In this document: one piece after another, positions 3,727-58,160 of the stretch | Layout: each line of letters begins with the position of its first letter | Position numbering within the stretch: position 1 is the first letter of the stretch | NCBI GenBank assembly: GCA_026770705.1 | Contig: JANJGN010000004.1 | Location: 158,782,001 to 158,846,000, forward strand | Source: Isurus oxyrinchus | Lineage: Eukaryota | DNA: 64,000 nt | Reading direction: 5' to 3' | Program-made: the position numbers and the translations under genes | Notes under the pieces: generated by a model | The model's database searches: none | Told to the model about the DNA's origin: nothing | Seen by the model: only the letters and a program-made list of their open reading frames with translations

Positions 3727-5554
3727 CCTTATTTAAAACAGGATTATGAAAAATGTGAGCATAGCATCAAAAAAAATTAAACTTAACATCTAATTTCTAA
3801 GTTGGTAAATTTGAAAAGCATGACTGTATAGCCTCCTTTGCTCTGTTTCCTGATTTTTCCATGGTTGGGAAACACAGTGTGATTGGAAATTTTACTCTTA
3901 ATGCTGGCAGATTTGCTGACTAAGGCAGGTGAAGACCTATGATGATGAATTATAGGGGAAACCCAGTTATGTTAGGATTTCCTTGGGGGGTGGGTAGCTG
4001 TTGTTCTTACTTGATTGTAGTCTGATGTCATTAACAGAAGTGGAGCTGGTAGGACTCTATCAGCTGCCAGAATTCTCATTAACTCTGCCTCTGGTAATAC
4101 CCATGTACTATACACCAGCAAGTGTCTTCATCAATGAAAGAGGGGCAATGTAGCCAATGTTATAATGCAGAGAACCATGGCAGCTAATTTGTACACAGCA
4201 AAGTTCCACAAATAAGAGTGAAGGAAATGAACAGATACTGTATTTAGTGATGTTGGTTAAGGGATCATTGTTTGCCTGGATGTGCATTAATGGATAATGT
4301 GGTTGCATAGTTGGCAAGATGGCCAAGATCTGCAAAATTAAAGAGTTAGGTGACATTTTTTTTTACATTGGAAAATATGACATGACACGAGGAAGGCAGT
4401 GGTGACTATGGCAGTCCAGGAGATCATTGCAGCCTCCAGAAATCAGGAAGAAGGGATAAGTGCTGTAGTCACTTATGCAGTAGCAACAGTTATTACTTCC
4501 ATAGAAGGAAGTTTCCCAAAAGACTTTTGACTGTTCAGAAACTAGTGGGCATGGTTTCCAATCAAAACTATGTTGCAGAATATTACTTTGGTGTGATCTT
4601 TCACACTCGCAATTGCCTTAATCCCCTGAGTTGCTATACAGGCCAAAGATTTGTCAACTTCACTGTGGTGTTGAATGTTGGGATGATTTTGGTACGGAAT
4701 TGCAATTAACCACCCCATTTTCATTTGATTGCAGTGAGCACACTTCCAGCAAAATGAATTGGATCATGGCGGAGATCACGATGGACAGTACGATAGAGTC
4801 AAATTTCAATTGCCACAGCGTCTCCACACCACTTATGTTTCCATGAGGGAAATCAGGTGTTTGTCTGATAAAGTTGTAATCAAATCAAACAGTCTTCTGC
4901 TCGATCTACATGTTTGTTACTTTGAGTCCTGTTGATTATCAAGTCATGAGGGAGATAGTGACATGTGTAATCTTAGGAAATGCTGGAAATACTTAGCAGG
5001 TCAAGCAGCATCTGTGACATTAACAGAGTTAATGTTTTGGCCTTCATCAGATTTCCTGCAACTGCAGTATTTTGCTTTACCTTATTCAACTCTACCCTCC
5101 TAAAAGGAGAAGCAAGAAAACATATGTGTCTGTGGATGGAGAAACAAAGAGAATATTTCAGCTCAGAAACTTTATTCACTTCGTTTTTTCTCTCTACAGA
5201 TACTGCCAGACCTCAGGGGCACTTGCAGCATTTTCTGTTTTAAGGGAGGCAGGTGTTTTCTGTTACTAGCTGAGCATTCCCATTCGCACGTTATTAACAC
5301 GTCTAGAGTTAACACTTACAGTGATAGTACCTCCACAGGAGTTGTTAGTATTATACATGTTACAACGTGCTGTACATTGGTGACATTGACCTTGTTAACT
5401 GAGAATAACTGCTAGCAATCCCTCAGAATGACGACAACTTGTCCAACTGGCTCTTCTTGGAATTGGGGAATTAATTCTTAGAACTGTGTCAGCTTGGAGG
5501 CTTATTCGTGCATGAATCTTTCCCTAGGAATATTGCCCGCTTCCTCTTAAACAG

Positions 5555-7284: not shown

Positions 7285-10200
7285 GTAAGAAATCATTTTA
7301 AATGATGAAAATATAGAAAATATGAAATAAAGAAGTTTTTTTAATGCACATATATAAAACAGATACAATAGAACCAATTGGGGTTAATAGTTTATAGATA
7401 CTAAAACTGAGTTAATTTATACATGGAGTTAATTAATGAACTCCCTGAAAGTTCTGTTGTGTCAGTGTAAAAGTAATCGGACCTGGGGTGTTTCTTATTA
7501 CTTTCTAGTCTTGTTCGGTTTCTAGGATTGAAATCTACGCAGCAGCTAGAAGGGGAATTGAACAAGTGCCCGAGGTGAGGGGGTGTGGAGGCTGACTTGC
7601 TGTCAACTGTCTGCGTACTCTCCCCGTTATTCCTTCTACACATCGACCCTTTTAAACATCCAGGAGGGAGGCTGTGGAGAAGGGGGGAGGAATGGGTAGG
7701 TATGTGCGCAGCCCATGGGTCCACTAATGTCCCTTCGCACAGAGCAGAGCCAAGATTAGACAAGTGTCGGGATTCAGGCTTTCTCACGCTTGTTGTTCAT
7801 CGATCCGCACTAACGCAGTGATGTGCTGGCGAGATTGTACGGCGCTACTTCAAATAGATTCAGCACTTTTGAAGGTTATTGGCCCGCAAACTGATTCGTA
7901 AGTAGGCAACTGTTTTTTTTCTATGTGTGAAGACATCATCCCATCGTCTGTGCGTATATTTGGTTCACTACACCCCAGATAAGCTATTCACCGTGGGGCG
8001 CTTTGAGGCTGCTTTATAAACCTGACTAAAATCCGCCTGGATACTACCCTACAACAACCACAAGGACAAGTCCCCGCCACTGTGCTTCTAGATTATGAGA
8101 GCTAATCCGTAAATACCACACACACCCCTGCACTCCCCGCCCCCTTCCTTGGACGAAGGCACGAAGTACCTAAATAATTCGACATAAAAAGAAAACCTTG
8201 CAAATACTCCACGTTTGCCTGAAAGAAACTTCGTCATTGTATGAGAAAGGAACTCAGTTCCAGACTGCTCTGTTATGAAACTTCGAACAATCTCTTCCTT
8301 TACTCTAGAACTTTTTACTTTGAACATAGAAGGAACATAGCATGTCTGTGACTTCTTATTTCCGCGAACCTGTGTTTCTTCGCACACTGTCTACGTCCTG
8401 TTGATAAAAGCTGGCGTCATCAACTGGGTGTGACAAACTATGGATGGAATAATGTGTTGAGGTGTGACTAATGCATTATCGATAAAGAACGATTAGAATA
8501 TTTTCGAAGACTTTACAGATACTCTAAGAGATACTGCATATTGTCCCCAGTGTTCCTGCCTCCTATGTTTCATGATCAGAACACAGATATGACCAGAGGA
8601 TTGCTGCCATGCAGTTCCTGGAATTATACTAAGCAGCGAGATTTCTGGAGAAAACAACACAGGTTGTTTACTTTGTCTCCAAGTCTCATGGCCATTTTGT
8701 TCCGGCTGTTTTATCTTAAGGCCCAGGGTGGAGGAATGGAAACTCAAGGATTAAAGCGAAAAGATTAAAGTTTAGAGGGGGAGGGAGAGAGATTAAGAGA
8801 AGCAAAGAAGGGAAGAAAGGAAAAGAGCAAAGAAACAGAAACACAAAGGAAAACCATCAGTAAAGAAGTGCAATACGCAATGAGAAGCTGGGAGAGAGAT
8901 GAGAAACAGTTGACAGTCAGCAGCGAGTTATGAATGCTGCAGAATAACACATGGAAACCGTGTCTGGTGGACACATGGTAGGGAAAGTTTTCTTGAGGCA
9001 GCTCCACTTACAGGAAAAAAGACACAAGAAAACCGAATGAAAATTAAAGCAAAGTGGCAGACTGCAGAACAGAATTAACTGAAAGATTTTCATTCAGCTC
9101 ATTTCATTAGTGACCGGTGTAAATGTGGCGGGACTTGTTTGATGTAAAAAAAAATCCTTGACTGTTTTTCCGCTTTTGTTTTCATTTTCAAATTATTTTC
9201 CTCCAATATTGCTTTTGGAAGTTGGTTTCCTAAAAAAAAACATCTGTTGGATCAACTGGCTCGAGTTGCTTTTTTTGCATGTTGTGGGAGTGCATACTAG
9301 ACATTCTACATGGCTTGGCAATCAGAATTGGACGTGAAATTCTACAGGCTTATACTTAATCAGTGTTCATTTTCTTTTTAGCTGAACAAGCTAAATTCCT
9401 GCAGTATCTTCCAAGTTTTATGGGAGACTTCTGGCATTTAGGGGTAGATTTTGCGCTTTGGACACAGTTGGACAATTGCGCTCATTCCGCGCTTGAAATT
9501 GCGTTGGTTGGGTAGTTTTTACGAAAACTTAATTGCATGACCTTAAACATCAAAATCATCTATGAATTAGTTTAATCAGGCAGTGCAATAGAAAACAATT
9601 CTTTTTTTTTCTCTTTTCCACTTGGAAAGTATTCCTGATGTATTTAAAAGCGGTAACGGTGCAATTTTATTAATACAGCTGAAAATAGGTTAATCATCAA
9701 AATGAGCGTTTTTAATAAGGGTGTGGAATCCTTCACTGTTAAGATACCCGTTTTAAGAGCACTGAACATGACTTTAAAACTATAGAGCCAGTTAATAGTT
9801 CCATTGATATACAAAGCTCCATTTATTCATAATTTGATTTGAAAATCTTTTTGAAGTGTACCTACTAGTGCCTGTGCGCTCGGAAAATGTACACAATTTA
9901 GAGAGCTTTTCAGAACCAATGGTATCGGCAAAATATCACCATTTTGACCTGATGCATGGCGAGTTTTGTGTGGATTGAATCTTGAACAAGCCTATAAGAT
10001 TCTAGAAAGCACGCGTGTGAATTTTGGAGGTAACTCAGCTACGCTTTAAATTCCACGATCCTTTGTGCTAGTTTAATTAATTCTGCCCTATATTACAGTG
10101 GAAGCTGGCTGCAAAACTAACAGAAACAAGCGGAACACTCCTCTTGAATTTTTAATTTTGCCTCTGTGGTATTTTTGTATCCAATTATTTTACAGCTGTT

Positions 10201-16232: not shown

Positions 16233-17090
16233 TCAGAAGTGGGGATATTCGCTGATGATTGCACAATGCTCAACATCTTTCACGACTCCTCATATACTGA
16301 AGCAACCTCTGTCCATATGCAGCCAGACCTGGGCAACATTCAGGCTTGGGCTGATAACTGGCAAGTAACATTTACACCACGCAAGTGTCAGGCAATGACC
16401 ATTGCCAGCCATCTCCCCTTGACACTCAATGGCATTACCATCACTGAATCCCCCACTATCAATATACTGGGGTTTACCACTGACAAGAAACTAGACCAGC
16501 CATATATTGTGGCTACAAAAGCAGGTCAGAGACAGGGAATTCTGCAGAGAATAACTCACCTCTTGACTCCCAAAACCTGTCAACCATCTACAAGGTATGA
16601 GTCAGGAGTGTGATGGAATACTCTCCTCTTGTCTGGATGAGTACAGCTCCAATAACACTCAAGAAGCTCAACACCATCCGGGACAAAAGCAGCCTGCTTG
16701 ATTGGAACCTCATCCACCACTTTCAACATTTAGTCCCTGCACGACCCACACACACTGGCAGCAGTTTGTAACATCTGCAAGATGCACTAAAGCAACTCAC
16801 CAAGGCTCCTTCGAATACATCTTCGAAACCCACAATTTTTACCACCTAGAAGAGCAAGGGCAGCAGGCACATGGGAACACCACCACCTGCAGGTTCCCCT
16901 CCAAGCCACTCACCATCCTGACTTGGAACAATATCGCTGTTCCTTCACTGTCGCTGGGTCAAAATCTTGGAACTTCCTTCCTAACAGCACTGTGGGTGTA
17001 CCTAAGCCACATGGACTGCAACAGTTCAAGAAGGCAGCAATTAGGGATGGGCAATAAAATGCTCACATTCCATGAAAGAATAAAGCAAAT
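16233..17090 (+). mobile_element. HER1-like (CR1-group) LINE 3' fragment
   Basis: FADD RT motif, DLGNIQAWADNWQVTF, and 3' tail caattagggatgggcaataaa shared with the HE1-like SINE. Confidence 0.85.
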
Positions 17091-29529: not shown

Positions 29530-31470
29530 GAGTGTAATACAACATGCCAGGAGCAGCACTAAGCATACCTAAAAATGAGATGCAAAGCTGGTGAAGTTAC
29601 AACACAGGACTACATGTATGCTAAACAACAGAAGCAGCATTGTATAGACAGAGCTAAGCTTACCCCACAACCAATGGATCAGATCAAAGCTCTGTCATCC
29701 TGCCACATCCATTTATGCATTATCACAGACACTTAAACAACTAATCAGAACCACATATATCCCCAACCTCAATGATGGGGGAGTTCAGCACATTAGTGCA
29801 AAAGACAAGGCTGAAGCATTTGCAACCATTTTCAACCAGAAGTGCCAGTTAGATGATCCATCTTGGTCTCCTCCTGAGGTTCCCTGCATTAGAAATGACT
29901 ATAGTCAGCCAATTCGATTCAGCCCATGCGATATTAAGAAACGGCTGAAGGCAATGGATGCTGCAAAGGCTACGCGCCCTGACAACATCCTGGCAATAGT
30001 TCTGAAGATTTGTGCTCCACAACTAGCCAAGCTGCTCCAGCATATCTAAAATATTGGCACCTCCCCAACAGTGGAAAATTGTCCAAGTATGTCTGACCCA
30101 CAAAAAGGAGAACAAATCCAACCTAGCCAAATACCCCCCTAAGCAACCTACTGTTGATCATCAGCAAAGTGTAGGTGGCATTGACAATGCTATCAAGTGC
30201 CACATACACAGCAATAACCTGCTCAATTATGCTCAGTTCAGGTTTCACCAGAACGACTTGGTTCCTGACCTCATTTCAGCCTTGGTCCAAACATGGACAA
30301 AAGAACTGAGCTCAAGAGCTGAGGTGAGAGTGTCTGCCCTTGACATCAAGGCAGCTTTTGGCCGAGTATGGCAATAAAGAGCCCTCGTAAAGCTGAAGTC
30401 AATGGAGATTGGAAGAAAACTAACACATGGTTAGAGTCATACCTAGCACAAAGGAAGATGATTGTGGTTGTTGGAGATCAATCATCTCAGTCTCAGGACA
30501 TCGCTGCAGGAATTCCACAGGATGGTGTCCTAGGCCTAATCATCTTCAGTTGCTTCATCAATGATCTTCCTTCCATCATAAGGTCAGAACGGGGCTGTTC
30601 ACTGTTGATTGCACAGTGCTCAGTACTATTCACAACTCCTCATATAATGAAGCAGTCTATATCCATATGCAGCAAGACCTAGAAAACATCAAGCTTGGGC
30701 TGATGTAGCTAGTAACATTTGTGCCAACAAGTGCCAGGCAATAAGCATCTCCAACAAGAGAGAATCTAACCATCACTTGATATTCAATGGCATTACCATC
30801 ATTGAATACCCCATAATTAATATCCTGGGGGTTACCATTGACCAGAAACTGGCCTGAACCAGCCAGATAAACGCTGCAGGTGTAAGAGCAGATCAGAGAC
30901 TGGCAATTCTGTGGCGAGTAACTCATCTCCTGACTTCCTGTCCACAATCTACATGGCACAAGTCAGGAGTGTGATGGAATATTATCCGCTTGCCTGGATG
31001 AGCGCAGCTCCAACAACACTCAAGAAGCTCAACAACATCCAAGACAAATCAGCCCGCTTGACTGTCACCCCATCCACCACATTAAACATTTACTCCTTCC
31101 ACCACCCACCCCCTTGTACCAGTGTGTATCATATAGAAAATGCACTGCAGTAACCTGCCAGGTCTCCCTTGACAGCACCTTCCAAACACACGACCTTTAG
31201 CACCTAGAAGAACAAGGACAGCAGGTGCATGGCGACACTACCATTTCCAAGTTCCCCTCCAAGTCACACACCATCCTGACTTGGAAATATATCTCTGTTC
31301 CTTCACTGTTGCTGTGTCAAAATTCTAGAACTCCCTCCCTAACAGCACTGTGGGTGTCCTTAGGCTGCAGCGGCTCAAGAAGGCGGCTCATTACCATCTT
31401 CTCAAGGGCAATTAGGGATTGACAACAAATACTGGCCTTAACACTAACACTCATATCTTATGAAAAATTG
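29530..31470 (+). mobile_element. HER1-like LINE, 5'-truncated
   Basis: RT motifs ALDIKAAF, GIPQDGVLG, FINDLP and the family 3' tail. Confidence 0.88.
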
Positions 31471-39700: not shown

Positions 39701-40374
39701 AATGGAGCTGTGCCCGTTGACATGACCTAGCCTTTCAGAATTCTCAATACTCTTTAAACAGAACTTCAGGGCCATCACTAAGAAGCAAATAAGCTTCAGA
39801 GATGCTCCACCATTGACATATGCACTGTAACAATAGCATGGAATTTGTTATAGTGTCTCGTGGTGAACAGAATTATGACTTATCAGATCAGTGAATAAGT
39901 CATTGGTTTAAATGATAAATGTGTGTTAGAAGTGACATGCTGATAAAGAAATACCATTATATGCTCAATGGCATGTGATGGTAGAAACAACACCAAAAGG
40001 TGCTGCCATTTGTGTTTTAAGAAACAGAAAATAGTGTGTAGAGGAGATTGATGAAATGAATTATGTAGCAAGTAATATGTTATCTTCCTGAAAGATGCAA
40101 TATATTATTCATTCATTTTATCGTACAAGTTTATCTTTGTACACACAACTAGCAAAAACACAATAATCAATTCTCACTCATCAGGACTGAGTTTCATTTT
40201 GATTTATAAATGTAACCTACCTTAATGCACATTGCTCTTAAAATTTAAACAGAGTCCCTTTTACAGATTGGCTTTACAATCTGTTTTACTGTTTGTGATT
40301 TTAAATTTCACTCCTGGGGTTGAATGTTACATATGAACATGCAAATTCAAAAATGGACAAAAGAGCTGAATTTC

Positions 40375-41492
40375 GGAGGTTAGGTGAGAGTGACTGGCCT
40401 TGACATCAAGGCAACATTTGACCAAGTGTGACATCAAAGAACCCTAGCAAAACTGGAGTCAATGGGGAAAACTCTCTGCTGGTTGGAATCATACCTAACA
40501 TAAAGGAAAATGGTTGTGGTTGTTGGAGATCAATCATCTCAGTTCCAGGGCATCACTGTAGGAGTTCCTCAGGTTAGTGTCCTAGGCCCAACCACCCTGC
40601 AACTGCTTGATTAATGACCTTCCTTCCATCATAAGATCAGAAGTAGGGATGTTCGCTGATGATGGCACAATGTTCAGCACCATTTGAGACTCCTCAGATA
40701 CTGAAGTAGTCCATGTCCAAATGCAGCAAGACCTGGATGTTGTCCAGGCTTGGGCTGACAAGTGGCAAGTAACATTTGCGCCACACAAGTGCCAGATAAT
40801 GACCATCTCCAATAAGAGAGAATCTAAATATCGCTCTTGACTTTCACTGGCATTACCATTGCTGAAACCCCCACCATCAACATCCTGGGCGTTACCATTG
40901 ACTGGGAAACTGAACTGGACTAGTCATATAAATACTGTGGTTACAAGAGCAGGCCAAAGGCTAGGAATAGAAAGGCTAGGAGTAACTCACCTCCTGACCC
41001 CCAAAGCCTGTTCTCCGTCTACAAAGCACAAGTCAGGAGTGTGATGGAATACTCTCCACTTGCCTGGACGAGTGCAGCTCCAACCAACACTCAAGAAGCT
41101 TGACACCATCCAGGACAAAGCAGCCCACTTGATTGGCACCACATCCACAAACATTTACTTTCTCCACCACCGGCGCACAGTGGCAGCAGTATACGTCATC
41201 TACAAGATGTACTTCAGGAACTTACTAAGCCTCTTTATACAGCACATTCCAAACCCACACCACTACTATCTAGAAGGACAAGGACAGCGGACACATGGGA
41301 GCACCACCACATGCAAACTACCCTCCAAGCCACTCAGCTACCCTCCAAGCCACTCACCATCCTGCTTGGAAATATATTGCCGTTCCTTCACTGTAGCTGC
41401 ATCAAAATCCAGGAACTCCCTCCCTAACAGCGCTGTGGGTGTACATACACCACATGAACTGCAGCAGTTCGAGAAGGCAGCTCACCACCATC
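40375..41492 (+). mobile_element. HER1-like LINE fragment, truncated at both ends
   Basis: LDIKATFD, FADD, and TLKKLDTIQDKAAHLIG. Confidence 0.88.
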
Positions 41493-41699
41493 AAAAATGG
41501 TGGATTTTCATGCCGTATAGTCCTGAACCCACCTCATTATTTATTCACTCCTGCAAAACACGCTGTTTCCATGACAGGCAGGCTCTCATTCGTCCACCCG
41601 CCATCACCCTGCTGTTGCATCATGCCGGCCGCCATCTTTAAAAGGCAGCTGCCAGCAAAATGCTCATTGCCACCAGCTCACCACCACTACCCGGGAGGC

Positions 41700-41942
41700 A
41701 TAGCTAGCAAAGGAAAAAAGACTGAAGCTGCCCCACTTCAACGACGGGTCCCTTGAGTGACTGCTGGATGCCATGCAGCCCCTCTGGGATGCACTCTACC
41801 CCGGCTCTGGCCGCAGGATAGGCAGCAAAGTCACCAACTCGGCTTGGGAGGTGGTGGCAGCGGTGGTAACCTCCAATGCCCTTCAGAAGAGTACAGCCAC
41901 CTAGTCAAACAAAGGATGAATGATCTTCTCTGTTCTGCCAGG
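41700..41942 (+). pseudogene. Harbinger Myb/SANT-like DNA-binding exon, disrupted
   Basis: Reads SKGKK..FNDGSLE*LLDAM..LYPGSGRR..AWEVVAAVVTSNALQKSTAT..KQRMNDLLCSAR followed by a gtaagt donor. Confidence 0.75.
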
Positions 41943-42696
41943 GTAAGTCACTCTTTTCATCACTCCCGACTCACACACTCACAAACCCATCACACATCCA
42001 CAGGGCCCTCACTCACTGCCAGTGAAGGGACATCACCATTCACTCTTTCACACTCACCACTCAAACAGGCCAGGCATACTTATCATCTGGCCCGGCTGGC
42101 ATCCTGATACACTCTCCCCATCTCTATCCATGCAGTACAAACTGGCACACAACAGGAGGGAAAGGTTGGTGGAAAGATAGGTGGAGGGATGCTGGAGATT
42201 AAAGTTCTGACAGAATTCGAAAACAGATCCATCCAGGTGGCCGGCGATGACTGGGACTGTTCCTGTGCTGACGGTGAGGTTGGCGGTGCTCTACCAAGTG
42301 AGGATCCAGCAGTGCAACATTCATCAGACAACCATGCTGTGAGTGATGTGTACTCTTGCACAGGCCACTACCATGCACTAAGTATGTCCTCTTGCTTTTA
42401 CTGGCACATCTGCTAAACAGCTGATAGAGTCCATTACCCAGGGTCTCCAATCAAGCCCTGAGGAAACCCAATGGCCTGAGGATGAATTTGGAGGCACCCT
42501 CCTTGAAGTCCCGTCACAGCACTCACTGCCACACAGCAGGACCCCAAAAGAAGGTCGGGGCCCTCCAGGTCTCGGACCCCCAAAGGACACCAGTCACAGT
42601 CATCACTGACAGGGCGTCACTGTCAGCAGTCTGCCTCCACCTCTGCTGTGGATGTTCGGGGAGCACCAAGGCGCAGCAGCAGGGCTAGGACAGTGA

Positions 42697-44328
42697 GGTA
42701 AAAGTAACTCTTTCTGAGTAAAACAATTAAACTAAATTAGCAAAATAAGGGATAAAATAAACACAGCCCCTAAATCAGGTCAGCTGTAAAACCAAGGACA
42801 AAGTTTAAAGGAAAGTTACAAACATCAAACCAAAATGTGATTAAAGAGATCGATTAAACACCCCAGTCCCCGTGGTGCCCACCGAGCATGGAAAGCCTCG
42901 AGTGTGCCGGCAGACACCGCGTGCTCCCTCTCCAGGGACACCCGGCCGTGAATGTAGCTGTGGAAGAGGGACAAAGAATCAGGCGGGACACCCCCCCTCG
43001 ATCGCCCGCTGCCTGGACCTGTTAATGGCCAACTTGGCCAGGCCCAGGAGCAGGTTCACAAGGAGGTCCTCCTCCTTCCCGAACCCCTTCCGCATCGGGT
43101 GTCCATAGATCAGGAGTGTGGGACTGAAGTGCAAACAAAACATTAATAAAAGGTTTTTTAAAAAACTGAAAAGGGAGTGCAGCCTACCACACCCTATATA
43201 AGCATGGTCCACGGACTCCACAAGACCACAAAAAGGGCAGGTGTCCTGGGCGTCCGTGAACCTATGCATTCTCCTATTATAGGGGACTGCTGCATGCAAC
43301 ACCCTCCAACCCAGGTCCCCGATAGAAAGGGGGAGGACACCTCCGTAGAGGGCCTCCCATCGGGGGCCTCCACCGCCAGATGGCAACAAGGCACACCAGG
43401 GCGTGTCCAAGCGGCGGACAAGGGCGACAAAATGAAAGGTGTGCAGCAGCAGTCCGTACAAAAAGCTCCTTCGTGACGTGCCAAATGGCACAGAGGGCAT
43501 GTCCCCGAGGCGGCTCATATTGCGGAGCACCAGCACCTGAGGGAGGGTTCGGGGCTTGGGGCCAATGTGTAATTCCGTCCAAACAGGGGAACGCTCAGCA
43601 GGAAGACCACCGCACACCTGGGCCACCTCGAGATCTAAAATTACTTCAGGTCCGAGCACGACCGCCCTCAGGTCTTGGATGGCATCGGCTGCAAGCTGGA
43701 CACTCACAGACGCATAACGTGCCAACTCCTGCGGGAGCATCCAGCCCAGTCCTCCGCCACCCAGCATGTCCCCGATCCTGGTCACCCTGGCAGCCACAGC
43801 CCTCCTCTCCGCCAACCACTGAAAAGGACGGAGGGGTGGATTCCTGAGCAGCGGCTCTCTAATGATAGTCGCTACTCCTGACGGGGGAGAGTTGCGTCGC
43901 GAGGCAACCTTGTTCCAAACTTTGATCAGGTCCTGGTAAAAGATGGGCAATGCCTGCAAGGACCCACTGAGGCCCCTCTGCTCTATAAACAGGAGCTGCA
44001 CCTCATAATTCAGGCTGTGCACCTGACGGAAGAAATACGTCGCCAGGGCACACCATCTCGGAGGAGGCTCAACGTAAAGGTATCGCTGCAGGGTCTGAAG
44101 GCGGAAAGTCGCCACCTGTGTGCGTAGGCACACTAACGCCTGACCACCCTCCCTAAGCGGGAGACTCAGAACCTCAGCAGTGACCCAGTGCAATCTTTTG
44201 TCCCAGAAGTCGTCGACTAACATTCTCTGGATTTTTGTGACAAAGTCCGGGGGAGGGATCAAAGTGACCAGCCTGTACCACAACATGGAGGCGATCAGCT
44301 GGTTTATGACTAGAACTCGACCCCGGTA
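42697..44328 (-). mobile_element. Tx1/L1-clade 3' fragment, array unit 1 (type A)
   Basis: YRGRVLVINQL...LSLPLREGG...CPFCGLVESVDHAYIGC (CCHC finger), followed by a 3' UTR. Confidence 0.9.
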
Positions 44329-45932
44329 GGTAAATGTAAATCTTTTAGAATTAAAATAATTAACAAAATGAGGGATAAATTAAGCACAGCTTTAAAACCA
44401 AGGACAAAGTTTAAAGGAAACTAATAAACATTAAACCAAAATGTGATCAAAGGGGTCAATAAAACTCCCCAGTCCCTACGGTGCCCACCGAGCATGGAAG
44501 GCCTCGAGAGTGCCGGCAGACACCACGTGCTCCCTCTCCAGGGACACCCGGCCGCGATCGTAGCCGCGGAAGAAGGACAAACAATCGGGCGGGACTCCCC
44601 CATCGATCGTCCACTGCCTGGACCTGTTAATGGCCAACTTGGCCAGGCCCAGGAGCAGGTTCATGAGGAGGTCCTCCTCCTTCCCAACCCCCTTCTGCAC
44701 CGGGTGTCCATAAATTAGGAGCGTGGGACTGAAGTGCAAACAAAACAGTAACAAAAGGTTTTGAAATAACTGAAAAGGGAGTGCAGCCTACCACACCCTA
44801 TATAAGCACGGTCCATGAACTCCACAAGACCACAAAAAGGGCAGGTGTCCTGGGAGTCCGTGAACCTACACATTCTACGATTATAGGGGACTGCTGCATG
44901 CAACACCCTCCAACCCAGGTCCCCGATTGAAAGGGGGAGGACACCTCCGTAGAGGGCCTCCCATCGGGGGCCTCCACCGCCAGACGGCAACAAGGCATGC
45001 CAGGGCGTGTCCGGGCGGTGGACAAGGGCGACAAAATGAAAGGTGTGCAGCAGCAGTCCGTATAGAAAGCTCCTCCACGCCGTGCCAAATGGCACGGAGG
45101 GCATGTCCCCGCGGCAGCTCATATTGCGGGGCACCGGCACCCGAGGGAGGGTTCGGGGCTTGGGGCCAATGTGGAATTCCGTCCGAACAGGGGAACGTTC
45201 GGCAGGAAGACCACAGCGCACCTGGGCCACATTGAGAACTAAAATTACTTCGGGTCCGAGCACGACCGTCCTTACGTCTTGGATGGTATCGGCGGCGAGC
45301 TGCACACCCACAGACACACGACGCGCCAACCCCTGCGGGAGCATCCAGCCCAGTCCTCCACCACCCAGCACGTCCCCGATCCTGGTCACCCTGGCAGCCA
45401 CAGCCCTCCTCTCCGCCAACCACTGAAAAGGACGGAGGGGCGGATTCCTGAGCAGTGGCTCTCTGATGATAGTCGCTACTCTTGACGGGGGAGAGCTGCA
45501 TTGCGAGGCGACTATGTTCCAGTCTTTGATCAGGTCCTGGTAAAAGACGGGCAATGCCTGTAAGGAGCCACCGAGGCCCCTCTGCTCTATAAACAGGAGC
45601 TGCACGTCATAATTCAGGCCGTGCATCTGATGGAAGAAATACATCATCAGGGCACACCATCTAGGAGGAGGCTCAATGTAAAGGTATCGCTGCAGGGTCT
45701 GAAGGCGGAAAGCCGCCACCTGGGTGTGAAGGCACACCAGCGCCTGACCACCCTCCCTAAGCGGGAGACTCAGAACCTCAGCAGTGACCCAGTGCAATCT
45801 TTTGTCCAAGAAGAAGTCGACTAACATTCTCTGGATTTTTGTGACAAAGTCTGGGGGAGTGATCAAAGTGACCAGCCTGTACCACAACATGGAGGCAATC
45901 AGATGGTTTATGACCAGAACTTGACCCCGGTA
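44329..45932 (-). mobile_element. Tx1/L1-clade 3' fragment, array unit 2 (type B)
   Basis: Same content and same truncation point as unit 1. Confidence 0.9.
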
Positions 45933-47563
45933 AGTAAAAGTAACTCTTTTAGAGTTAACATAATTAAACTAAATTAACAAAATAAGGGATAAATCAAGCA
46001 CAGCTCCTAAGTCAGGTCAGCTGTAAAACCAAGGACAAAGTTTAAAGGAAACTTATAAACGTTAAACCAAAATGTGATCAAAGGGGTCAATAAAACACCC
46101 CAATCCCCGCGGTGCCCACCGAGCACGGAAGGCCTTGAGAGTGCTGGCAGACACCGCGTGCTCCCTCTACAAGGGCACCTGGCTGCGAATGTAGCCGCGG
46201 AAGACAGACAAACAATTGGGCAGGACTCTCCACTCGATTGCCTGCTGTCTGGATCTGTTAATGGCCAACTTGGCCAGGCCCAGGAGCAGGTTCACGAGGA
46301 GGTTCTCCTCCTTCCCGACCCCCTTCCGCACCGGGTGCCCATAGATCAGGAGCATGGGGCTGAAGTGCAAACAAAACATTAATAAAGGGTTTTATAAATA
46401 ACTAAAAAGGGAGTGCAGCCTACTACACCCTATATAAGCATGCTTCACAGACTCCACAAGACCACAAAAAGGGCAGGTGTCCTGGGAGCCCGCGAACTTA
46501 CACATTCTCCTATTATAGGGGCCTGCTGCATGCAACACCCTCCAACCCAGGTCCCTGATAGAAAGGGGGAGGACACCTCCGTAGAGGGCCTCCCATCGGG
46601 GGCCTCCGCCGCTGGACGGCAACAAGGCACGCCAGGGCGCGTCCGGGCGGCGGACAAGGGCGAGAACATGGAAGGTGTGCAGCAGCAGTCCGTACAGAAA
46701 GCTCCTCTGCACCGTGCCAAATGGCATGAAGGGCATGTGCCGGAGGCTGCTCATATTGCGGGGCACCAGCATCCGAGGGAGGGTTCGGGGCTTGGGGCCA
46801 ATGTGGAATTCTGTCCGAACAGGGGAACGCTCAGACGGAAGACCACTGTGCACCTGGGCCACCTCGAGACCTAAAATTACTTCGGGTCTGAGCACGACCG
46901 CCCTTAGGTCTTGGATGGCATCGGCTGCAAGCTGGACACTCACAGACGCATGACGCGCCAACTCCTGCAGGAGTATCCAGCCCAGTTCTCCACCATCCAG
47001 CCCGTCCCCGATCATGGTCACCCCTGCAGCCACAGCCCTCCTCTCCGCCAACCACTGAAAAGGATGGAGGGGCGGATTCCTGAGCAGCGGCTCTCTGACG
47101 ATAGCCGCTACTCCTGACGGGGGAGAGCTGCTTCGCGAGGCGACCATGTTCCAGACTTTGATCAGGTCCTGGTAAAAGATGGGCAACGTCGGCAAGGAGC
47201 CACCGAGGCCCCTCTGCTCTATAAACAGGAGCTGCACGTCATAATTCAGGCCGTGCACCTGACGGAAGAAATACGTTGCCAGGGCACACCATCTCGGAGG
47301 AGGCTCGACGTAAAGGTATTGCTGCAGGGTCTGAGGGCGGAAAGTCGCCACCTGTGTGCGTAGGCACACTAGCGCCTGACTGCCCGCCCTAAGCGGGAGA
47401 CTCAGAACCTCAGCAGCGACCCAGTGCAATCTTTTGTCCCGGAAGAAGTCGACTAACATTCCCTGGATTTTTGTGACAAAGTCCGGGGGAGGGATCAAAG
47501 TGACCAGCCGGTACCACAACATGGGGGCGATCAGCTGGTTTTGACCAGAACGTGACCTTGGTA
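45933..47563 (-). mobile_element. Tx1/L1-clade 3' fragment, array unit 3 (type A)
   Basis: Same content and same truncation point as unit 1. Confidence 0.9.
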
Positions 47564-49183
47564 GGTAAAAGTAAATCTTTCAGAATTAAAATAATTAACA
47601 AAATGAGGGATAAATTAAGCACAGCCCCTAAGTCAGGTCAGCTGTAAAACCAAGGACAAAGTTTAAAGGAAACTTATAAACATTAAACGAAAATGTGATC
47701 AAAGGGGTCAATAAAACACCCCAGTCTCCAAGGTGCCCACCGAGCATGGAAGGCCTCGAGAGTGCTGGCAGACACCGCGTGCTTCCTCTCCAGGGACACC
47801 CGGCCGCGAACGTAGCCGCGGAAGAGGGACAAACAATCGTGCAGGATTCCCCCCTCGATCGTCCGCTGCCTGGACCTGTTAATGGCCAACTTGGCCAGGC
47901 CCAGGAGCAGGTTCATGAGGAGGTCCTCCTCCTTCCCGAACCCCTTCTGCACCGGGTGTCCATAGATCAGGACCGTGGGACTGAAGTGCAAACAAAACAT
48001 TAATAACAGGTTTTTGAAAAAACTGAAAAGGGAGTGCAGCCTACCACACCCTATATAAGCATGGTCCACGGACTCGACAAGACCACAAAAAGGGCAGGTG
48101 TCCTGGGAGTCCGTGAACCTGTGCATTCTACGATTATAGGGGACTGCTGCATGCAACACCCTCCAACGCAGGTCCCCGATAAAAAGGGGGAGGACACCTC
48201 TGTAGAGGGCCTCCCATCAGGGGCCTCCGCCGCCAGATGGCAACAAGGCACACCAGGGCGTGTCCGGGCGGCGGACAAGAGCGAGAAAATGGAAGGTGTG
48301 CAGCAGCAGTCCATACAAAAACCTCCTCCGCGCCATGCCAAATGGCACTGAGGGCATGTCCCCAAGGCGGCTCATATTGCGGGGCACCAGCACCCGAGGG
48401 AGGGTTCGGGGCTTGGGGCCAATGTGGAATTCTGTCCGAACAGGGGAACGCTCAGACGGAAGACCACCGCGCACCTGGGCCACTCAAGACCTAAAATAAC
48501 ATCGGGTCCGAGCACGACCATTCTCAGGTCTTGGATGGCATCGGCTGCGACCTGGACACTTTCAGACGCACGACGCGCCAACTCCTGTGGGAGCATCCAG
48601 CCCAGTCCTCCGCCACCCAGCACGTCCCCGATCCTGGTCACCCCGGCAGCCACAGCCCTCCTCTCTGCCAACTACTGAAAAGGACGGAGGGGCAGATTCC
48701 TGAGCAGCGGCTCTCTAATGATAGCCGCTACGCCTGACGGGGGAGAGCTGCGTCGCGAGGCGACCATGTTCCAGACTTTGATCAGGTCCTGGTAAAAGAC
48801 GGGCAACGCCTGCAAGGAGCCACCGAGGCCCCTCTGCTCCATAAACGGGAGCTGCATGTCATAATTCAGGCCGTGCACCTGACGGAAGAAATACGTCATC
48901 AGGGCACACCATCTCGGAGGAGGCTCGACATAAAGGTATCGCTGCAGGGTCTGAAGGCGGAAAGTCGCCACCTGTGTGCGTAGGCACACTAGCGCCTGAC
49001 CGCCCTCCCTAAGCGGGAGACTCAGAACCTCAGCAGCGACCCAGTGCAATCTTCTGTCCCAGAAGAAGTCGACTAACATTCTCTGGATTTTTGTGACAAA
49101 GTCCGGGGGAGGGGTCAAAGTGACCAGCCGATACCACAACATGGCGGCGATCAGCTGGTTTATGACAGAACTCGACCCCGGTT
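47564..49183 (-). mobile_element. Tx1/L1-clade 3' fragment, array unit 4 (type B)
   Basis: Same content and truncation point; carries an internal stop and a frameshift. Confidence 0.9.
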
Positions 49184-49330
49184 GGTAAACGTAACTCTTA
49201 TGAGTTAAAACCAATCAAACTAAATTAACAAAATTAGGATGAATCAGGCACAGCCCCTAATTTAGGTCAGCTGTAAAACCAAGAACAAAGTTTAAAGGAA
49301 ACTTACAACTTTAAACCAAAATGTGATAAA
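49184..49330 (-). mobile_element. Tx1 3' UTR stub, array unit 5 (type A-like)
   Basis: Only the 3' UTR and the last few ORF2 codons; Harbinger sequence resumes at cgtagttacacagcctgggc. Confidence 0.88.
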
Positions 49331-50029
49331 CGTAGTTACACAGCCTGGGCATAGATGTTAATCACTTGTACATACTGTTCACTATTGTCAATAAACTCCC
49401 AAGAATGTCACCCTGCCTGTGGCTCCTTGTTCTGATGAGCAGTGCTCTTGTCACTCAGATGTGAAAGCTTTCTGCACAAGATAAAAGGCAGGTGTTTCAG
49501 TCCAGGGCCCTTCCCTGTGCCCTGTGCAGCCTTCAGACCACAGTGATGGTCCAGCCTCACACTCCATGGAAACATTACTGATGCCTGCACCTTGGCGATG
49601 CTGCTCATTGTTGCCAGAATGTAGTGAGCAGGTGCCACAGAGTTCTCCCATTCTCTCGTACTGCTCTCAGCACCTTTAAGGTGGGGCTGGCCCCCACCAC
49701 ACCAGCATCTTGAAGGACTGAGGTGCTGAAGGCGAACACCGCATCAGAAGCATCTAAAGTTTCATGGCTCTGCCTCTGAGATGGCCTTGATCACAAGCGT
49801 AAGCGAGCTGCCCTCGGCCAGACAGGAGCCAGACATTCTCAGAGGCCACGTGAAGATCAATGGAATGTCCTCACTGCATGACGTCATCATCCTCCTGCAA
49901 CCAAGCGACTATTAGGGCCTCCACTGCATTTCCAGGACAGGAGCATTCTCACAGAGAGTATTTGCACTGCCATAAGCAAGACTGGAGTCAAACATTCACT
50001 ACTGCGATGTGAGGATCTATGGGGACACC

Positions 50030-51251
50030 TCACTGCATGTCATCATCATCCTCCACAAAGCTGGCAGCTATGAGGGCCTCCTAAGCACACCTGCCTCGTC
50101 TAGCCAGTAAGAGAGCCTCATCCCATCATTGTCACCACTGAGGACCCCCTCAACATCATCTTCGTTGGTGTTCTCCTCGTCGGAGGAGGTGTGCAGCTTC
50201 TCCATCTTCTCCTCAGCCAGCTTCTCTCCCCGTTGCAGCGCCAGGTTGTAAAGGCCACAGCAGACGATGACAATGCGTAACAGCCTCTGCAGACTGTCTT
50301 GCAGGGCTCCACCAGACCGGTCCAGGCACCGGAATTGCATCTTCAGCATCCCGATGGTCTGCTCCACCAAGTTGGAATCTGCTGTATGAACCTCATTATA
50401 CCGTAATTCTGCTGCAGTCTGAGGCCTCTGTGGGTAGCCCTTGTACCCGAGGAGCCAACCCTGCAGCTTCTGTGGGCCATGGAGGACTGCAGGGATCTGC
50501 AAGTGGCTCAGAATGTAGGCGCATGTACATTCCCTGGAAACCATGTGCGCATCTGCAGGATGCGTTTGTGGTGGTCACATACCAGCTGCACGTTCAGTGA
50601 GTGGAAGTCTTTGTGGTTGATGAAGTCCACTGAGTGTAGCGATGGAGACCTGGGCGCCATATGAGTGCACTCAATCTCACCCTGCAGCTGTGGGAATCCC
50701 GAGATCAGGGCAAATCCAATGTCCTTTGTATCCTGGCTGTCCCAGTCCTGGATGAAATGCATAAAGTTGTGTGCCATGGAGAAGACGGCATCCTTGACCT
50801 CATGGCTGCATTTGTGGGTGGCAGATTGTGAAATCCCACAGAGGTCACCTGTGGAGCCCTGAAAGCTGCTGCTGGTGTGGAAATTGAGCATCGCAGTCAC
50901 TTTCACAGCCACTGGCAGTGGATGCCCTCCATGTGCCCTTGGCACCAAATCCTGCAGTAAGTGGCAAATGTGAGCCACCAGGTCCCTGGACATCAGCAGT
51001 TGTCACTGACATTGGTTCTCAGTCATCTGCAGGAATGGCAGGCGGTGTGTATAGACCCTGGGTGTTGCTAGGCGCTGACCAGTTACGGCTCACTGTCGCT
51101 CCTGGGCAGCTTGTGCAGGAGCCCCTGCTGCCCCTTCTTCATAAGGTTGCTGCTCCTGCCTTTGTACAGCCAGAAGCCTCAGTCGTTCTCTCCTCTGTCT
51201 TCCACGGTCTCTGTGGGCCATCAGGCATACAGCCAAGTCGCCAGGATCCAT
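50030..51251 (-). pseudogene. Harbinger DDE transposase (HARBI1-like family), disrupted
   Basis: LNFHTSSSFQ, GFPQLQGEIECTH, HSLNVQLVCD, WLLGYKGYP, EQTIGMLKMQFRCLD; broken by stops and frameshifts. Confidence 0.88.
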
Positions 51252-51609
51252 GATCCTGACATGGTTCTCATGCCGCATGAAAGAGAGAGAGATGTGGTTA
51301 TCACGGCTGTACTTAGCACCTTTCCTGGCCCTGTGTGACTGCCCCTTAACACTTCCCAGAGAGTGGTGGTCACCCCTCGGATGGCCAGAGATGAGCGCGC
51401 TGCGCGACTGCCCTGTCAGTCTGCGACATGGGGGACACTGGTCCAAACCAGGATGCTGAGATTGCAAGGGGCTGTGAGCACCTCCAGCAGTGACTGCTAC
51501 ATGGCCAGCATTGGCGAGGAGATTGTACAACGTGTGCAGTCCAACTGCTCTGCGGTCCAATAAATAGGTGGTGGACTCAAAGTCTGTGCCAGGGGTGGTT
51601 GTGTGGCAG

Positions 51610-51637
51610 GGGGGAGGTGGGTGGGGTGGGGGGGGGG

Positions 51638-51668
<31 letters not shown>
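51610..51668. repeat. Poly-G tract
   Basis: Nearly pure G runs inside the Harbinger subterminal region. Confidence 0.9.
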
Positions 51669-52399
51669 TGCACTAAGGTATGGAGCACTTAGTGGCCCTT
51701 TCGTGACTCCACATTGCTTGCAAGGATGGCAGGCTAGGAGCCAGACCCCAATCATATCACTGTGGCTCTGCCTGATCCCTCTCAGTTGCAGAGGCATGGT
51801 CACTTTATACAGGTGTCCCTAGTGTGTGGCCACTTTCCTCACTCACCCTGCCCCCCATCTTGATTGCCTGTGCTAAGGATGCAGTGCTAGGGCAACACTT
51901 GACCCAACCCACGCCTCCCCACCGACAATGGTCACCTCTGAGGCCGGCCAACACCTGACCCCGGACATCCCCCCATCTCAGCAGTTGCCTCTGGGGCCAT
52001 ACACCAGTTGCCCCCACCCCCTGGTGCCCCTGAGGCCTGTAAACAACGGGCGAGCTGTGGAGAATGCTGCTGCTCATTCACCTAAGTTCCCCCAAAGTGA
52101 AGGCTGCCAAGTGCACATTGCCTGCGTGCTGTTGTGAAACACGTCGACGTGCTTTCTGTCGACATGGATGGACAATATGGAGGGGTTCCAAGAGCCTGGT
52201 GGGATGGCCTTTTAATTATATGCTGATGTATTACAATTAGCTCCCCACCAACCAATGGCAGGAAATGTGGCCCACCATCGGTGGGCTGAGCAGAAAATCA
52301 CAACCTGCCTTCACGCCATCGTGAAGCAGGTCACACCATATTTTCTGCGCCCATCACCTATCACTCTGCCAGCAGGATCGGAAAATTCCGCTCCTTATT

Positions 52400-54674: not shown

Positions 54675-57600
54675 TGTCAGTTGATAAGCCCCTAGACTTG
54701 GTCATGTCACAGTCGCTGGAGCTGCAAAGGCAAGCTCGGGAATATCAGGAAGGGATGTCCGCTGCACTCCTCAGATTGCAAGGCACAATGGAGGAGTCTG
54801 TCGGCCTTCAGCCTGAGTTGATAGCGCTACATGCTAATGCACCAAGGTCAACGCTGATAGGATGGCAGCAGCCATGGAGACCCTGGTCCAGGATATTGCT
54901 CCTGCACTGTTACACGGGCCGAATTCCATCGCTGACGCCATAGTTGGCTCCAACAGTGTTGGCGCAAGAGGGGTGCGGGCAGCTCAATCTCACTCCAGCT
55001 ACCCCTTCTCCTCAAGGAGTCAGCCAGAGGCCCTTGGGCACCCATAGGGTTGAGGATCAGCAGTTGCACTGACTGGGGCCATCCACCCAGGTGACACCGG
55101 AAGTGTCCGGCCCATCCGAATCCCCTATTCCTGTGGCCTCAGCAGCTCCAGCTCCACAGGCCGAGGAGGGTGCCACTGCCACACAGCAGACCATGGCCCT
55201 TCAAGTCTTGGCCCTCTCATGGACGCCCGACAAGGTCATCACAGACAGGGCATTGCTGTCAGCAGGCTGCCTACGCCTCCACTGTGGATGTGCTAGGAGC
55301 ACCACGACTTATTGGCAGGGTTAGGAAAGTAAAGAAGATGTAGTTGAACAGCCTGGGCATGAGTGTTACTTACTTGTACATAATGTTCATTAATGTCAAT
55401 AAACTCCCAAGAATGTGTCCCTGCCTACGGCTCCTTGTTCTGATGAGCAGTGTTCGTGTCACTCAGGCGTGAAACCTTTCTGCACAAGATAAAGTCAGGT
55501 GTCTCAGTCCAGGGCCTCTTCCCTGTGCATTGCGCAGCCTTCAGACCAAAGTGGTGGTCTACCTCTCACTGCTTGGTCATATTGGTGATGCCTGCACCTC
55601 GACGGTGCTTGTCAATGCTGCGAGAATGTTGTGGGCTGACATCACAGAGTTCTCTCATTCTCTCTGTGTGCTCTCAGCACCTTTAAGATGGGGGCTTGCG
55701 TCCATCTCTTCAGCATCTGTGACTGATGACTGTGCTTTTAAAATTTAATGGCTGGTCTCTATGATATGACCCTGATCAGAGAGCACAGGCAAGCTGCCCT
55801 CGGCCAGACAGGAGTCAAATGTTCTCAAAGGCTATGTGAAGATCTAGGGAGTGTCCTCACTGCATGTCGTCATCATCCTCCTGGAATCGAGCGATTATTA
55901 GGGCCTTCACTGAGTATCCATGACAGGAACTTTATCATAGAGTGTATGTGCGCCACTATAAGCCAGACAGGAGTCAAACATTCATAAATGCAATGTGAGG
56001 ATCTATGGTGACTCTTCACTGCTTGCCGTGATCATCCATCACGAATCTAACAGTTATAAGGGTCTTTTGAGTGCACCTGCCTTGCCTGACCAGTGTGAGG
56101 GCCTCATCCCCCTCATGGTTGCCTTCGAGGACCTCCTCACCTCATCCCCATCGGTGTCCTCTTCATTGGAGGAGACCTCCAGCTCCTGAATCTCCTCCTC
56201 AGCCAGCTCCTCTCCCCATTGCAGCACCAGACTGTAAAGGGTGCAGCAGACTATGACAATGTGTGACACCTTCTGTGGACTAAATTGCAGGGCTCTACCA
56301 GACCGGTCCAGGGACCGGAACCTCATTTTCAGCATCTCAATGGTCTGTTCCACCAAGTTGCGAGTTGCAGCATGAGCCCCGTTATACCTTCACTCTGCTG
56401 CAGTCTGAGACCACCACATGGGCAAATCCAATCGCTCTTGCATCCTGGCTGTCCTGGTCCCAGGCAAAATGTACAAAGTTGTGTGCCCTTGCAAAGATGA
56501 CGTCCATGACCTCACAGATGTATTTGTGGGTGGAGGCTTGTGATATCCCACAGAGGTCACCTGTGGAGCCCTGAAAGGAGCCACTGGCGTAGAAATTGAG
56601 CACCGTGGTCACTTTCACGACCATTGGCAGTTGATGCCGTCCATGTCCCTGTGGCACCAAATCCTGCAGTGGGTGGCAGATGTGACCGACCAGTTCCCTA
56701 GACATGCACAATTTTCAATGACACCGGTTCTCGGTCATCTTCAGGAATGAAAGATGGCGTCTACAGATCCTAGGTGTTGCTAGGTGATGACCAATGATGG
56801 CTCACTGTGGTTCTTTGGCGGTGTGTGCAGGAGCCCCAGCCGCCCCATCTTCCCGGGGGTGTTGTTCCTTTCGCTGTGCAGGCAGATGCCTCAGTTGCTC
56901 TCTTCTCCATTGTCTTCACTCTCTGTAAGCCATGAGGCATACAGCTAGTTCACCAGGCTCCATGATCCTGATATACTCCTCCTGCAGGATGAAAGAGAGA
57001 AACATGGTGTACTAAGAACCTGTCTTAGGTTAAGTGTGAAGGCTTCTTAGCGCATTGTGGAGAGTGTTGGCCATCACTCGGATGGCCAGGGATTCATGCG
57101 CTGCTTGGCTGCCTGAAACCCCATCTTCCTCCACCCCACCCCACCTGACCGGTTGATGACAGCTTTGCCCATCGGACTGCATGCTGTGTTCTCAGCTCAG
57201 TTGCAAGCATTCTCCTAGTCCATACTGCAAGGCTGCACTATTAGTTTGAGCCAGGGGGAGACTGGTCCAAACTGGGATGATGACCTTGCAAGGGGCTGTG
57301 AGCGCCTCCACCAGTGACTGCTCCATGGCCAGCTTTCACAAGGAGATTGTACAACGTGTCTAGTCATCCAGCTGTTCTGCAGTCCACTAAAATGCTCATT
57401 AGTTTGCAGTCTGTGCGCGAGGGATGTAAAGCTCTGGAGCACTTGGTGGCACTTTGATGCCTCTGTGTTGCTTGAGTGGGCAGAAATGCTAGAGGTCCGA
57501 CTCCAACATGTCAATATGGCTGCACCTAAACTGTCTCAGCTGCAGAGGAATGGTCACTTTATACAAAGTTTCCCTAATGCGTGGCCGCTTCCCTCACCCA

Positions 57601-58160
57601 CATCCCCACATCCCGCACGTGCTTGTGCGTTACCTTCAACCGTAGTGCAGCCCTTGCCCCACCCCCCCATGTCCCTCAACCACAGGGCAGTCCTTGCTCC
57701 CCCACCCCATGTCATATCGATCGCAGGGCAGCCCTTGCCCCAAGCAACCCCCGTACCCAACATGCCTCAACCTTGAAACCCAACAGGAGACCCGGGCAAG
57801 TGCTGTGCAATGTTTCTGTGTACTCATCTCTGAGTTTCCCTCAAAGTGCAGCCCGCCAAGTACGCGCCTTTTATATGCTGTTGTTAAGCATGTCAGCGCG
57901 CAATCCTGCTGACGTGGGCGGACGATCCAGCTGGTGAGAGACGATTCCAGCAGGCTGGGCTTATAATGATGATAATTTGTATTAAAATGAGGCTCCTGAC
58001 ATCCGATGGCAGGAAACGTGGCCTACCAATGGTGGGTGAAGCGGACAATCACAAACTGGCTTCACGACATCATGAAACCAAATTTTGGCCTTCTAACCAT
58101 ATCGTCTGCTCATGCCACCAAACATGCCTGATGTCAGCGGGCATGGAAAATCCCAGCATA
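54675..58160. mobile_element. PIF/Harbinger DNA transposon (copy H2), left part missing, without the Tx1 insertion
   Basis: Collinear with H1 across the Myb 3' end, the intergenic region and the transposase; right end ggcatggaaaatcccagc. Confidence 0.82.
56010..56963 (-). pseudogene. Harbinger transposase with the central catalytic region deleted
   Basis: LNFYASGSFQGSTGDLCGISQ and EQTIEMLKMRFRSLD are present; the segment matching H1 ~50430-50710 is absent. Confidence 0.85.

Follow-up and report, generated by a model that had tools for sequence, protein, structure and literature searches.

Tandem copies of long interspersed elements (LINEs) have been described in several systems, cited here from the portions of text available. 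In Drosophila 28S rDNA, tandem R1 copies are separated by target-site duplications (TSDs), and each further insertion goes into the TSD that borders the older copy on its 5' side (PMC2718515). Crocodilian Tx1-Mar/SINEU-3 tandems sandwich a TSD, and Tx1-9_AMi prefers Harbingers (PMC4494074). The preference of Tx1 elements for DNA transposons, Harbingers included, TSD-separated tandems and stacking at the 5' TSD (R1, SINEU-3) are thus already published. Double insertion followed by unequal exchange is a source of transposable-element (TE) satellites, with distinct 5' truncations marking independent insertions (PMC5932611). As to the 5' junction itself, nascent L1 cDNA can leave its RNA and use as template a nearby stretch of DNA (<250 bp long and no more than 15 bp from the site), which is thereby duplicated in a manner resembling synthesis-dependent strand annealing (SDSA; Gilbert et al. 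2005 via bioRxiv 10.1101/2024.08.27.596794), and in the "anneal" 5' junctions of R2 the 3' region of the cDNA base-pairs with homologous DNA at the site, giving precise joining (PMC11331408, PMC13580325). Here we have analyzed a LINE array in a 64,000-nucleotide stretch of the Isurus oxyrinchus genome (contig JANJGN010000004.1; hereafter the window), in which four units end at one and the same 5' truncation. In the literature searched, whose coverage was incomplete and excluded supplements, we found no description of inherited truncation in tandem LINE insertions.

We propose, with a probability of roughly two in three, that the array consists of separate insertions stacked at one Harbinger-type target, and that the common 5' breakpoint arose when new copies were joined by pairing with the older adjacent copy. 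What we observed is a preference for the target, TSDs as spacers, units from different templates, array growth toward the 5' side and short neighbor-derived tracts in old/young pairs. The pattern is real and family-wide, and breakpoint inheritance would be a new aspect of a known stacking behavior.

Self-comparison of the window revealed a 1.6-kb period across 42696-49330, with ~89-90% identity. The head-to-tail units, on the minus strand, have periods of 1632, 1604, 1631 and 1620 bp and are followed by a short piece of 3' untranslated region (UTR), which reproduced the layout given in an earlier description made from the sequence alone (the initial annotation). As this had also stated, the four long units are all cut at one position of open reading frame (ORF) 2, Y-R-G-R in unit 1. 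Longer unlinked copies extend upstream and read V-L-S-Y-R-G-R at the matching position; therefore, the array breakpoint is internal to ORF2. Unit 1 has an open 449-codon frame beginning YRGRVLVINQ, and units 2-4 contain frameshifts and stops. The pairwise identity of the four long units is 90-92% (MAFFT), a divergence that the initial annotation does not mention, and the final piece, or stub, is 82-85% identical to units 1-4 in the MAFFT alignment and 87-90% in a second comparison. We agree with the initial annotation that poly(A) is absent from the array units of the window. Its statement that there is no clear TSD did not hold. The element 3' end begins at TAACTC/TAAATC (42705), as in other genomic copies, and with the end placed there a ~10-bp target copy is present at every junction and in the left flank, and TAAACG at the right flank. 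The reported 147-bp stub is indeed 3' UTR only, but its element part is ~136 bp. The unit 1/2 junction was covered, with zero differences, by one short-read contig of 96 bp assembled from a public DNA run that may come from the assembled sample; such contigs neither spanned the array nor revealed an allele without the stub. In public RNA runs, 0.08-0.09 of the query words were present.

The domain content of the LINE places it in the L1 group. The reverse transcriptase (RT) domain RVT_1 was matched in longer genomic copies, and the unit 1 protein gave a weak zf-RVT match (E=9e-4, under the curated cut-off) and was 43% identical to a 1306-aa protein containing apurinic/apyrimidinic endonuclease (APE) and RT. 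Relatives of ~1300 aa carry PF03372+PF00078, and the top PDB match of the best of them was human L1 ORF2p (E=8e-76). No APE domain was matched in the single genomic ORF tried, and a protein-cluster atlas search returned only unnamed zf-RVT clusters. The L1-group traits found are an ORF2 with APE endonuclease (through the ~1300-aa relatives), RT and a C-terminal zinc-binding region, as well as a fixed 3' end, variable 5' truncation (the breakpoints of 70 first units span 142 to 2956) and a short TSD, called for 25 of the 54 insertions or arrays that were fully in view and measuring 10-14 bp in 17 of these. From its motif likeness and target preference, the element is tentatively assigned to the Tx1 type.

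At 55200-55440, the window contains an uninterrupted paralogue to which the two flanks of the array can be aligned as one, and the right flank holds a decayed DDE_Tnp_4 transposase (PF13359, E=1.4e-10 and 2.7e-5; 50068-51002). The match to an empty paralogue and the DDE_Tnp_4 domain identify the host of the array as a predicted Harbinger/PIF-type DNA transposon; one ORF upstream gave no Pfam match. The target site lies past the 3' end of the transposase gene. Among loci not found via the junction query, 27 of 69 first-unit 3' flanks matched this Harbinger site (flank-match cut-off 60, maximum shuffled score 28), which exceeds the >20% of flanks of one kind taken as the Tx1-clade target criterion in the available text of PMC4494074. 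The remaining 42 flanks had, at the two positions before the cut, G in 39 and T in 32 (mostly TG). In the window, the target variant TAAACG was found only in the last junction and the right flank, and was absent from the other junctions; therefore, the stub was inserted last, into the 5'-side TSD.

The four long units derive from different templates. At 1275 non-CpG sites, units 1-4 presented 125 variant alleles, 27 of which were common (at least 10%) in the unlinked copies within 264 de-duplicated pieces that provided the allele frequencies, vs 4.7% expected (p=2e-11). The common alleles comprised 12 silent and 9 replacement changes, against 8 and 39 for private alleles (p=0.0014). Since they are common among unlinked copies and enriched for silent changes, these alleles arose in active source elements and not after local duplication. 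The differing template alleles run along the whole unit length. Each unit carries 22-43 private changes, and unit pairs have 2-5 rare alleles in common (unlinked pairs 0-4, a true duplicate 73). In a tree of 42 copies, units 1-4 formed no clade and lay along the backbone, with modest support. The absence of a clade, the few common rare alleles compared with the private ones and the differing template alleles do not fit a LINE-derived satellite or ordinary tandem duplication; an alternating A-B-A-B dimer duplication was unsupported by the unit identities. The stub was 95-97% identical to unlinked copies mostly scoring 0.7-0.8 on the age score described below (younger), and is the youngest piece, from a younger subfamily than the units. 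The initial annotation had offered, as a first option, two insertions at one site followed by unequal crossover, with the ~147-bp UTR as the shared sequence. That the site was hit repeatedly was borne out, but crossover expansion through the UTR was not, given the template alleles differing along the whole length and the younger stub.

To place the array among its relatives, we have searched the genome with the element 3' end and three internal 801-bp pieces, using the best 30 loci of each (a sample biased to similar subfamilies), and have also examined 40 genomic regions of 10 kb. The joint between the 3' end and YRGR was detected at five unlinked loci with the junction query, and in one more array. 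The initial annotation had expected that such recurrence would support a mobile family; the same junction did recur, but each locus had its own distinct spacer, matching or resembling its own flank, which made the expectation misleading. In many arrays elsewhere, the breakpoint was constant within the locus and differed between loci, and the spacers, extra bases included, were locus-specific and repeated within the array. Outside the loci found via the junction query, 47 of 86 adjacent pairs had a common breakpoint (46 within 3 nt), the second unit being longer in 17/86 and shorter in 22/86, and 21 of 32 locus records contained at least one common-breakpoint pair. The agreement expected by chance from random pairs of the 70 first-unit breakpoints was 1.1% (3 nt) or 2.7% (15 nt). 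The independent count is slightly lower, as a single array entered the count both as L174 and as L175, and the arrays L177/L178, 70 kb apart, are related.

The relative age of units was scored at 48 sites that distinguish, among non-array copies, the youngest 15 from the oldest 18. Of 26 arrays, 19 had a younger unit at the 5' end than at the 3' end, none had an older one there and 7 were tied (p=2e-6). Arrays thus grow at their 5' side. In the short arrays L054, L057 and L071, successive 3'-UTR types (77-89% alike; three or four in a row) had one breakpoint and one spacer.

We have then compared new units with their older neighbors in 25 same-breakpoint pairs, at the sites where the older neighbor differs from the closest unlinked relatives of the new unit (this set does not include arrays whose units measure <500 bp, nor the inner L174/L175 pairs, L179, L183 and L037). 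At <50 bp from the breakpoint, the neighbor allele was carried at 22/34 sites (65%) vs 29/131 (22%) in matched unlinked controls (p=5e-6). The values were 24/48 (50%) vs 56/207 (27%) at 50-100 bp (p=0.003), 37/88 (42%) vs 91/404 (23%) at 100-250 bp (p=3e-4) and 147/971 (~15%) vs 427/4108 (10%) at >250 bp (p=5e-5). A clear switch (at least 60% neighbor alleles before it) was seen in 12 pairs, and in 11 of these it fell in the breakpoint-proximal 35% of the unit (p=8e-5 vs uniform). The tract common to old and young partners measured 35 to ~480 bp beside the breakpoint. Clean cases were L172 (to 134 bp), L189 (to 228 bp) and L033 (to 50 bp); neighbor alleles reached 168 bp in L182, with none from 386, and 256 bp in L031, with none from 477. 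In the window, units 1 and 2 have minor alleles in common at 39, 53, 54 and 70 bp from the breakpoint, whose frequencies among unlinked copies are 3%, 24%, 0% and 10%; unit 3 carries two of the four and unit 4 none. The window thus gives modest evidence for a copied tract, and the case for the mechanism depends more on the sister arrays.

Based on these data, the array could have formed as follows. The first copy would have been cut at YRGR, maybe helped by microhomology between the native ORF2 sequence at this point (GGTAAG) and the target (GGTAGG), which resemble each other; this breakpoint recurs mildly. The endonuclease would then re-nick the TSD at the 5' end of the first copy, where the native downstream flank is kept, and prime a new cDNA. 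On the primer side lies the old copy, with which this cDNA shares homology. Near the old breakpoint, the cDNA (or the second-strand primer) would swap strands with the adjacent old copy in an SDSA-like manner; in an alternative route, the second-strand primer would extend along the old copy and then anneal to the cDNA. Such an exchange would set the join in register and copy the last ~35-480 bp of the old copy, the junction, the spacer and the TSD. Any longer cDNA would be trimmed, with some longer ones escaping (17/86 pairs). In the window, the cycle would have been repeated three times, and the stub cDNA, too short to reach the breakpoint region, would have been joined to the TSD by end-joining. 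Some arrays are further extended when their units undergo unequal exchange or gene conversion afterwards. We are inclined, less firmly, to regard homology-guided 5' joining as a routine pathway of this LINE, used in roughly every second re-insertion, even where the partners diverge by 15-20%, and giving polarized arrays that record subfamily history in order, each unit being a young body on an old 5' junction.

Several observations weigh against this reading. No clear switch was seen in 13 of the 25 pairs, which fits either tracts too short to see or no copying, and the L186 tract is long (~810 bp). Neighbor alleles are in excess also far from the breakpoint, which therefore indicates some within-array exchange or same-era templates. 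In the window, the changepoint log-likelihood ratios for the three pairs were 2.4, 0.6 and 0.1, so the copied tract is weak there, and unit 4 has no neighbor allele beyond ~50 bp. The age scores of units 1-4 (0.46, 0.36, 0.43 and 0.53) do not give an age order for units 1-3, ten rare alleles scattered among the units are held in common, and unit 4 is the nearest sequence to unit 1 (0.923 vs 0.920 for the best unlinked copy) and to unit 2 (0.920 vs 0.915). Moreover, a fixed genome cannot separate exchange during insertion from exchange afterwards.

A new copy could insert with its own longer 5' end and acquire the old breakpoint by later unequal crossover (between alleles or sister chromatids) with the older copy, a process that would also add units in arrays of three or more. 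In L174/L175, sharing is with one neighbor over the 5' part and with the second neighbor over the 3' part, a reciprocal pattern typical of unequal crossover, and L177/L178 contain higher-order block repeats; crossover after insertion is clearly at work in some of the long arrays. According to the available text of PMC5932611, the standard route is also one of double insertion with subsequent unequal exchange. As the source of the shared breakpoints we consider it unlikely. The switch points cluster by the breakpoint (11/12) and are not spread along the unit, two-unit arrays (L031, L032, L033, L185, L179) offer no donor copy, and crossover would have to occur in more than half of the neighbor pairs. 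In addition, hybrids are found between copies only 81-87% alike (L172, L034, L189, L185, L181). Mismatch-repair anti-recombination makes crossover rare between diverged copies, which disfavors crossover at this level of likeness.

The same hybrid structure would result if a tandem duplication came first, the endonuclease then cut the internal TSD and the cDNA overwrote most of the duplicate from the 3' end (retrotransposon-mediated gene conversion). A near-identical recent duplicate is present at L050, but this scheme requires an independent duplication ahead of each event and gives no reason to expect the youngest unit at the 5' end, where it stands in 19/19 informative arrays; we regard it as improbable. 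Independent truncation at an intrinsic hot spot, where microhomology between ORF2 (YRGR) and the target would repeat the junction with no neighbor copying, is more doubtful still. The likeness of GGTAAG to GGTAGG, the breakpoints recurring across loci (6/70 first units at 387-393, 2/70 at 1605-1606) and the lack of a copied tract in unit 4 speak for it. Most arrays, however, are cut at positions unique in the sample (1502, 1446, 1348, 1329, 2002, 2240, 464), with extra spacer bases repeated, and neighbor alleles are enriched by the breakpoint. A single concatemeric reverse-transcription event or a mobile tandem/satellite family, the two other options of the initial annotation, is hardly credible: the 3'-end/YRGR junction does occur at several unlinked loci, but it is not independent of the flank, the spacers differ by locus and copy the local target, breakpoints differ between loci, and the units come from subfamilies of different age, in order from old to young, with the stub younger than the units.

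Further readings were set aside. Nested self-targeting of the ORF2 YRGR site is out, as the sequence beyond the array holds no 5' remnants and each locus has its own breakpoint, and antisense back-splicing at CCG|GTAAG was dropped, as the spacers are target copies. Routinely long TSDs are weak as a cause (1/54 called duplications >20 bp, in SINE-like sequence). LINE circles, as presented in the available text of PMC3510499, are not applicable to the array.

The features of the window are listed in Table 1.

Table 1. Coordinates of the array, its spacers and its predicted host transposon in the window
Feature	Position	Strand	Basis
Left part of predicted Harbinger-type host DNA transposon, ending in target copy GAGGTAAAAG (42695-42704)	41500..42704	+	Aligned with right flank to uninterrupted paralogue
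Unit 1: LINE 3' UTR and ORF2 C-terminal 449 codons (open), cut at YRGR	42705..44326	-	Alignment; zf-RVT E=9e-4; 43% to 1306-aa APE+RT protein
Target-site spacer, units 1/2, TAGGTAAATG	44327..44336	+	Alignment to target
Unit 2: breakpoint as unit 1; four minor alleles common with unit 1 at 39-70 bp from breakpoint	44337..45930	-	
Target-site spacer, units 2/3, TAAGTAAAAG	45931..45940	+	Alignment to target
Unit 3: same breakpoint; 20/132 unlinked copies nearer than its best sibling	45941..47561	-	
Target-site spacer, units 3/4, TAGGTAAAAG	47562..47571	+	Alignment to target
Unit 4: same breakpoint; top "young" score of the four (0.53); 40/132 unlinked copies nearer than best sibling	47572..49181	-	
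Target-site spacer, unit 4/stub, TTGGTAAACG; AAACG variant in common with right flank	49182..49191	+	
Stub: 3' UTR only, younger subfamily, last insertion, ordinary short truncation	49192..49327	-	Identity to unlinked copies
Right target copy TAAACG (49327-49332) and remaining predicted Harbinger-type element, decayed DDE_Tnp_4 transposase (50068-51002)	49327..51002	-	Pfam PF13359
Empty target-site paralogue in second predicted Harbinger-type copy	55200..55440	+	Alignment

The window also contains old dispersed repeats of 74-78% identity (16233-17038, 30288-31398, 40348-41492); the match of 49332-52325 to 55340-58076 (74-78% identity) corresponds to the putative Harbinger-type element and its paralogue. 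Elsewhere in the genome, L174/L175 (G000:C7:113.43-113.45 Mb) has seven units cut 2 nt from the window breakpoint, and L177 and L178 (G000:C5:162.66-162.74 Mb) are long higher-order arrays mixing breakpoints 228, 744 and 1541. First-unit breakpoints recurred at unlinked loci at 387-393 (6/70), 228-233 (3/70) and 1259 (3/70), and these breakpoints lie at or near GC-rich CCGG/CCCC motifs and are possible truncation hot spots. In L188, with breakpoint 2956, a 108-bp flank segment stands before the array and after two units (2505-2615, 5414-5520, 8673-8780); judged by eye, it is an unusually long target duplication, itself inherited. In L189 (4125-4330, 7094-7300), a 212-bp junction insert with foreign sequence follows units 1 and 3, and the unit between is cut differently; either copying from a non-adjacent unit or block duplication would account for it. 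One copy carries an 81-bp tandem repeat within ORF2, with about seven extra copies (L047:6431-7003). The youngest subfamily has a longer 3' end of ~100-270 bp (L032:4490-4750, L050, L165, L182:5140-5254). It matches a short element, over the 3' portion of the latter, that also stands by itself at these sites behind arrays (L176, L182, L183). This short element looks like a short interspersed element (SINE) that has the terminal AAGAGTTAC in common with the LINE, and it may be tRNA-like.

Should breakpoint inheritance hold for site-specific Tx1 elements at large, duplication is not proven by identical truncation. The arrays undercut the common rule that equates equal truncation in tandem LINEs with duplication. 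If inheritance is general, such stacks would also be a natural source of recombinant LINEs. The 5' joining of LINE cDNA to the genome is a still open part of target-primed reverse transcription, and the arrays offer dozens of natural joining events in which tract lengths are measurable and partner divergence is known, as well as an ordered series for subfamily dating. The arrays are also relevant where retroelement proteins are used to insert transgenes repeatedly at a specific site, since the junction of the next copy could be steered by the one already resident. A host function of the array is neither shown nor claimed.

Compared with the systems introduced above, again within the text available for each, the shark arrays resemble those of R1, also a site-specific APE-type LINE with a TSD between copies and the same growth polarity. 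R1 differs in that variable 5' junctions are described and identical ones are ascribed to one amplified event, with no truncation inherited by new templates in that text (PMC2718515). The crocodilian Tx1 elements are alike in preferring a DNA transposon and forming TSD-sandwiching tandems; the Tx1-9_AMi site, however, is ~300 bp from the Harbinger 5' end, whereas the shark site lies beyond the 3' end of the transposase gene, and no common truncation is described in the portion of PMC4494074 available. The TE-satellite route also places a TSD inside the tandem junction and involves later unequal exchange (here L174/L175), but in the shark arrays independent templates have one truncation in common. 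The SDSA-like L1 events are rare and come from cultured or tumor cells, whereas in the shark they would account for about half of neighbor insertions, repeatedly and in the germ line. Finally, R2 relies on homology to upstream target sequence present in its RNA, without any duplication; in the shark LINE, the homology would be provided by the older element on the primer side, with its 5' end being duplicated.

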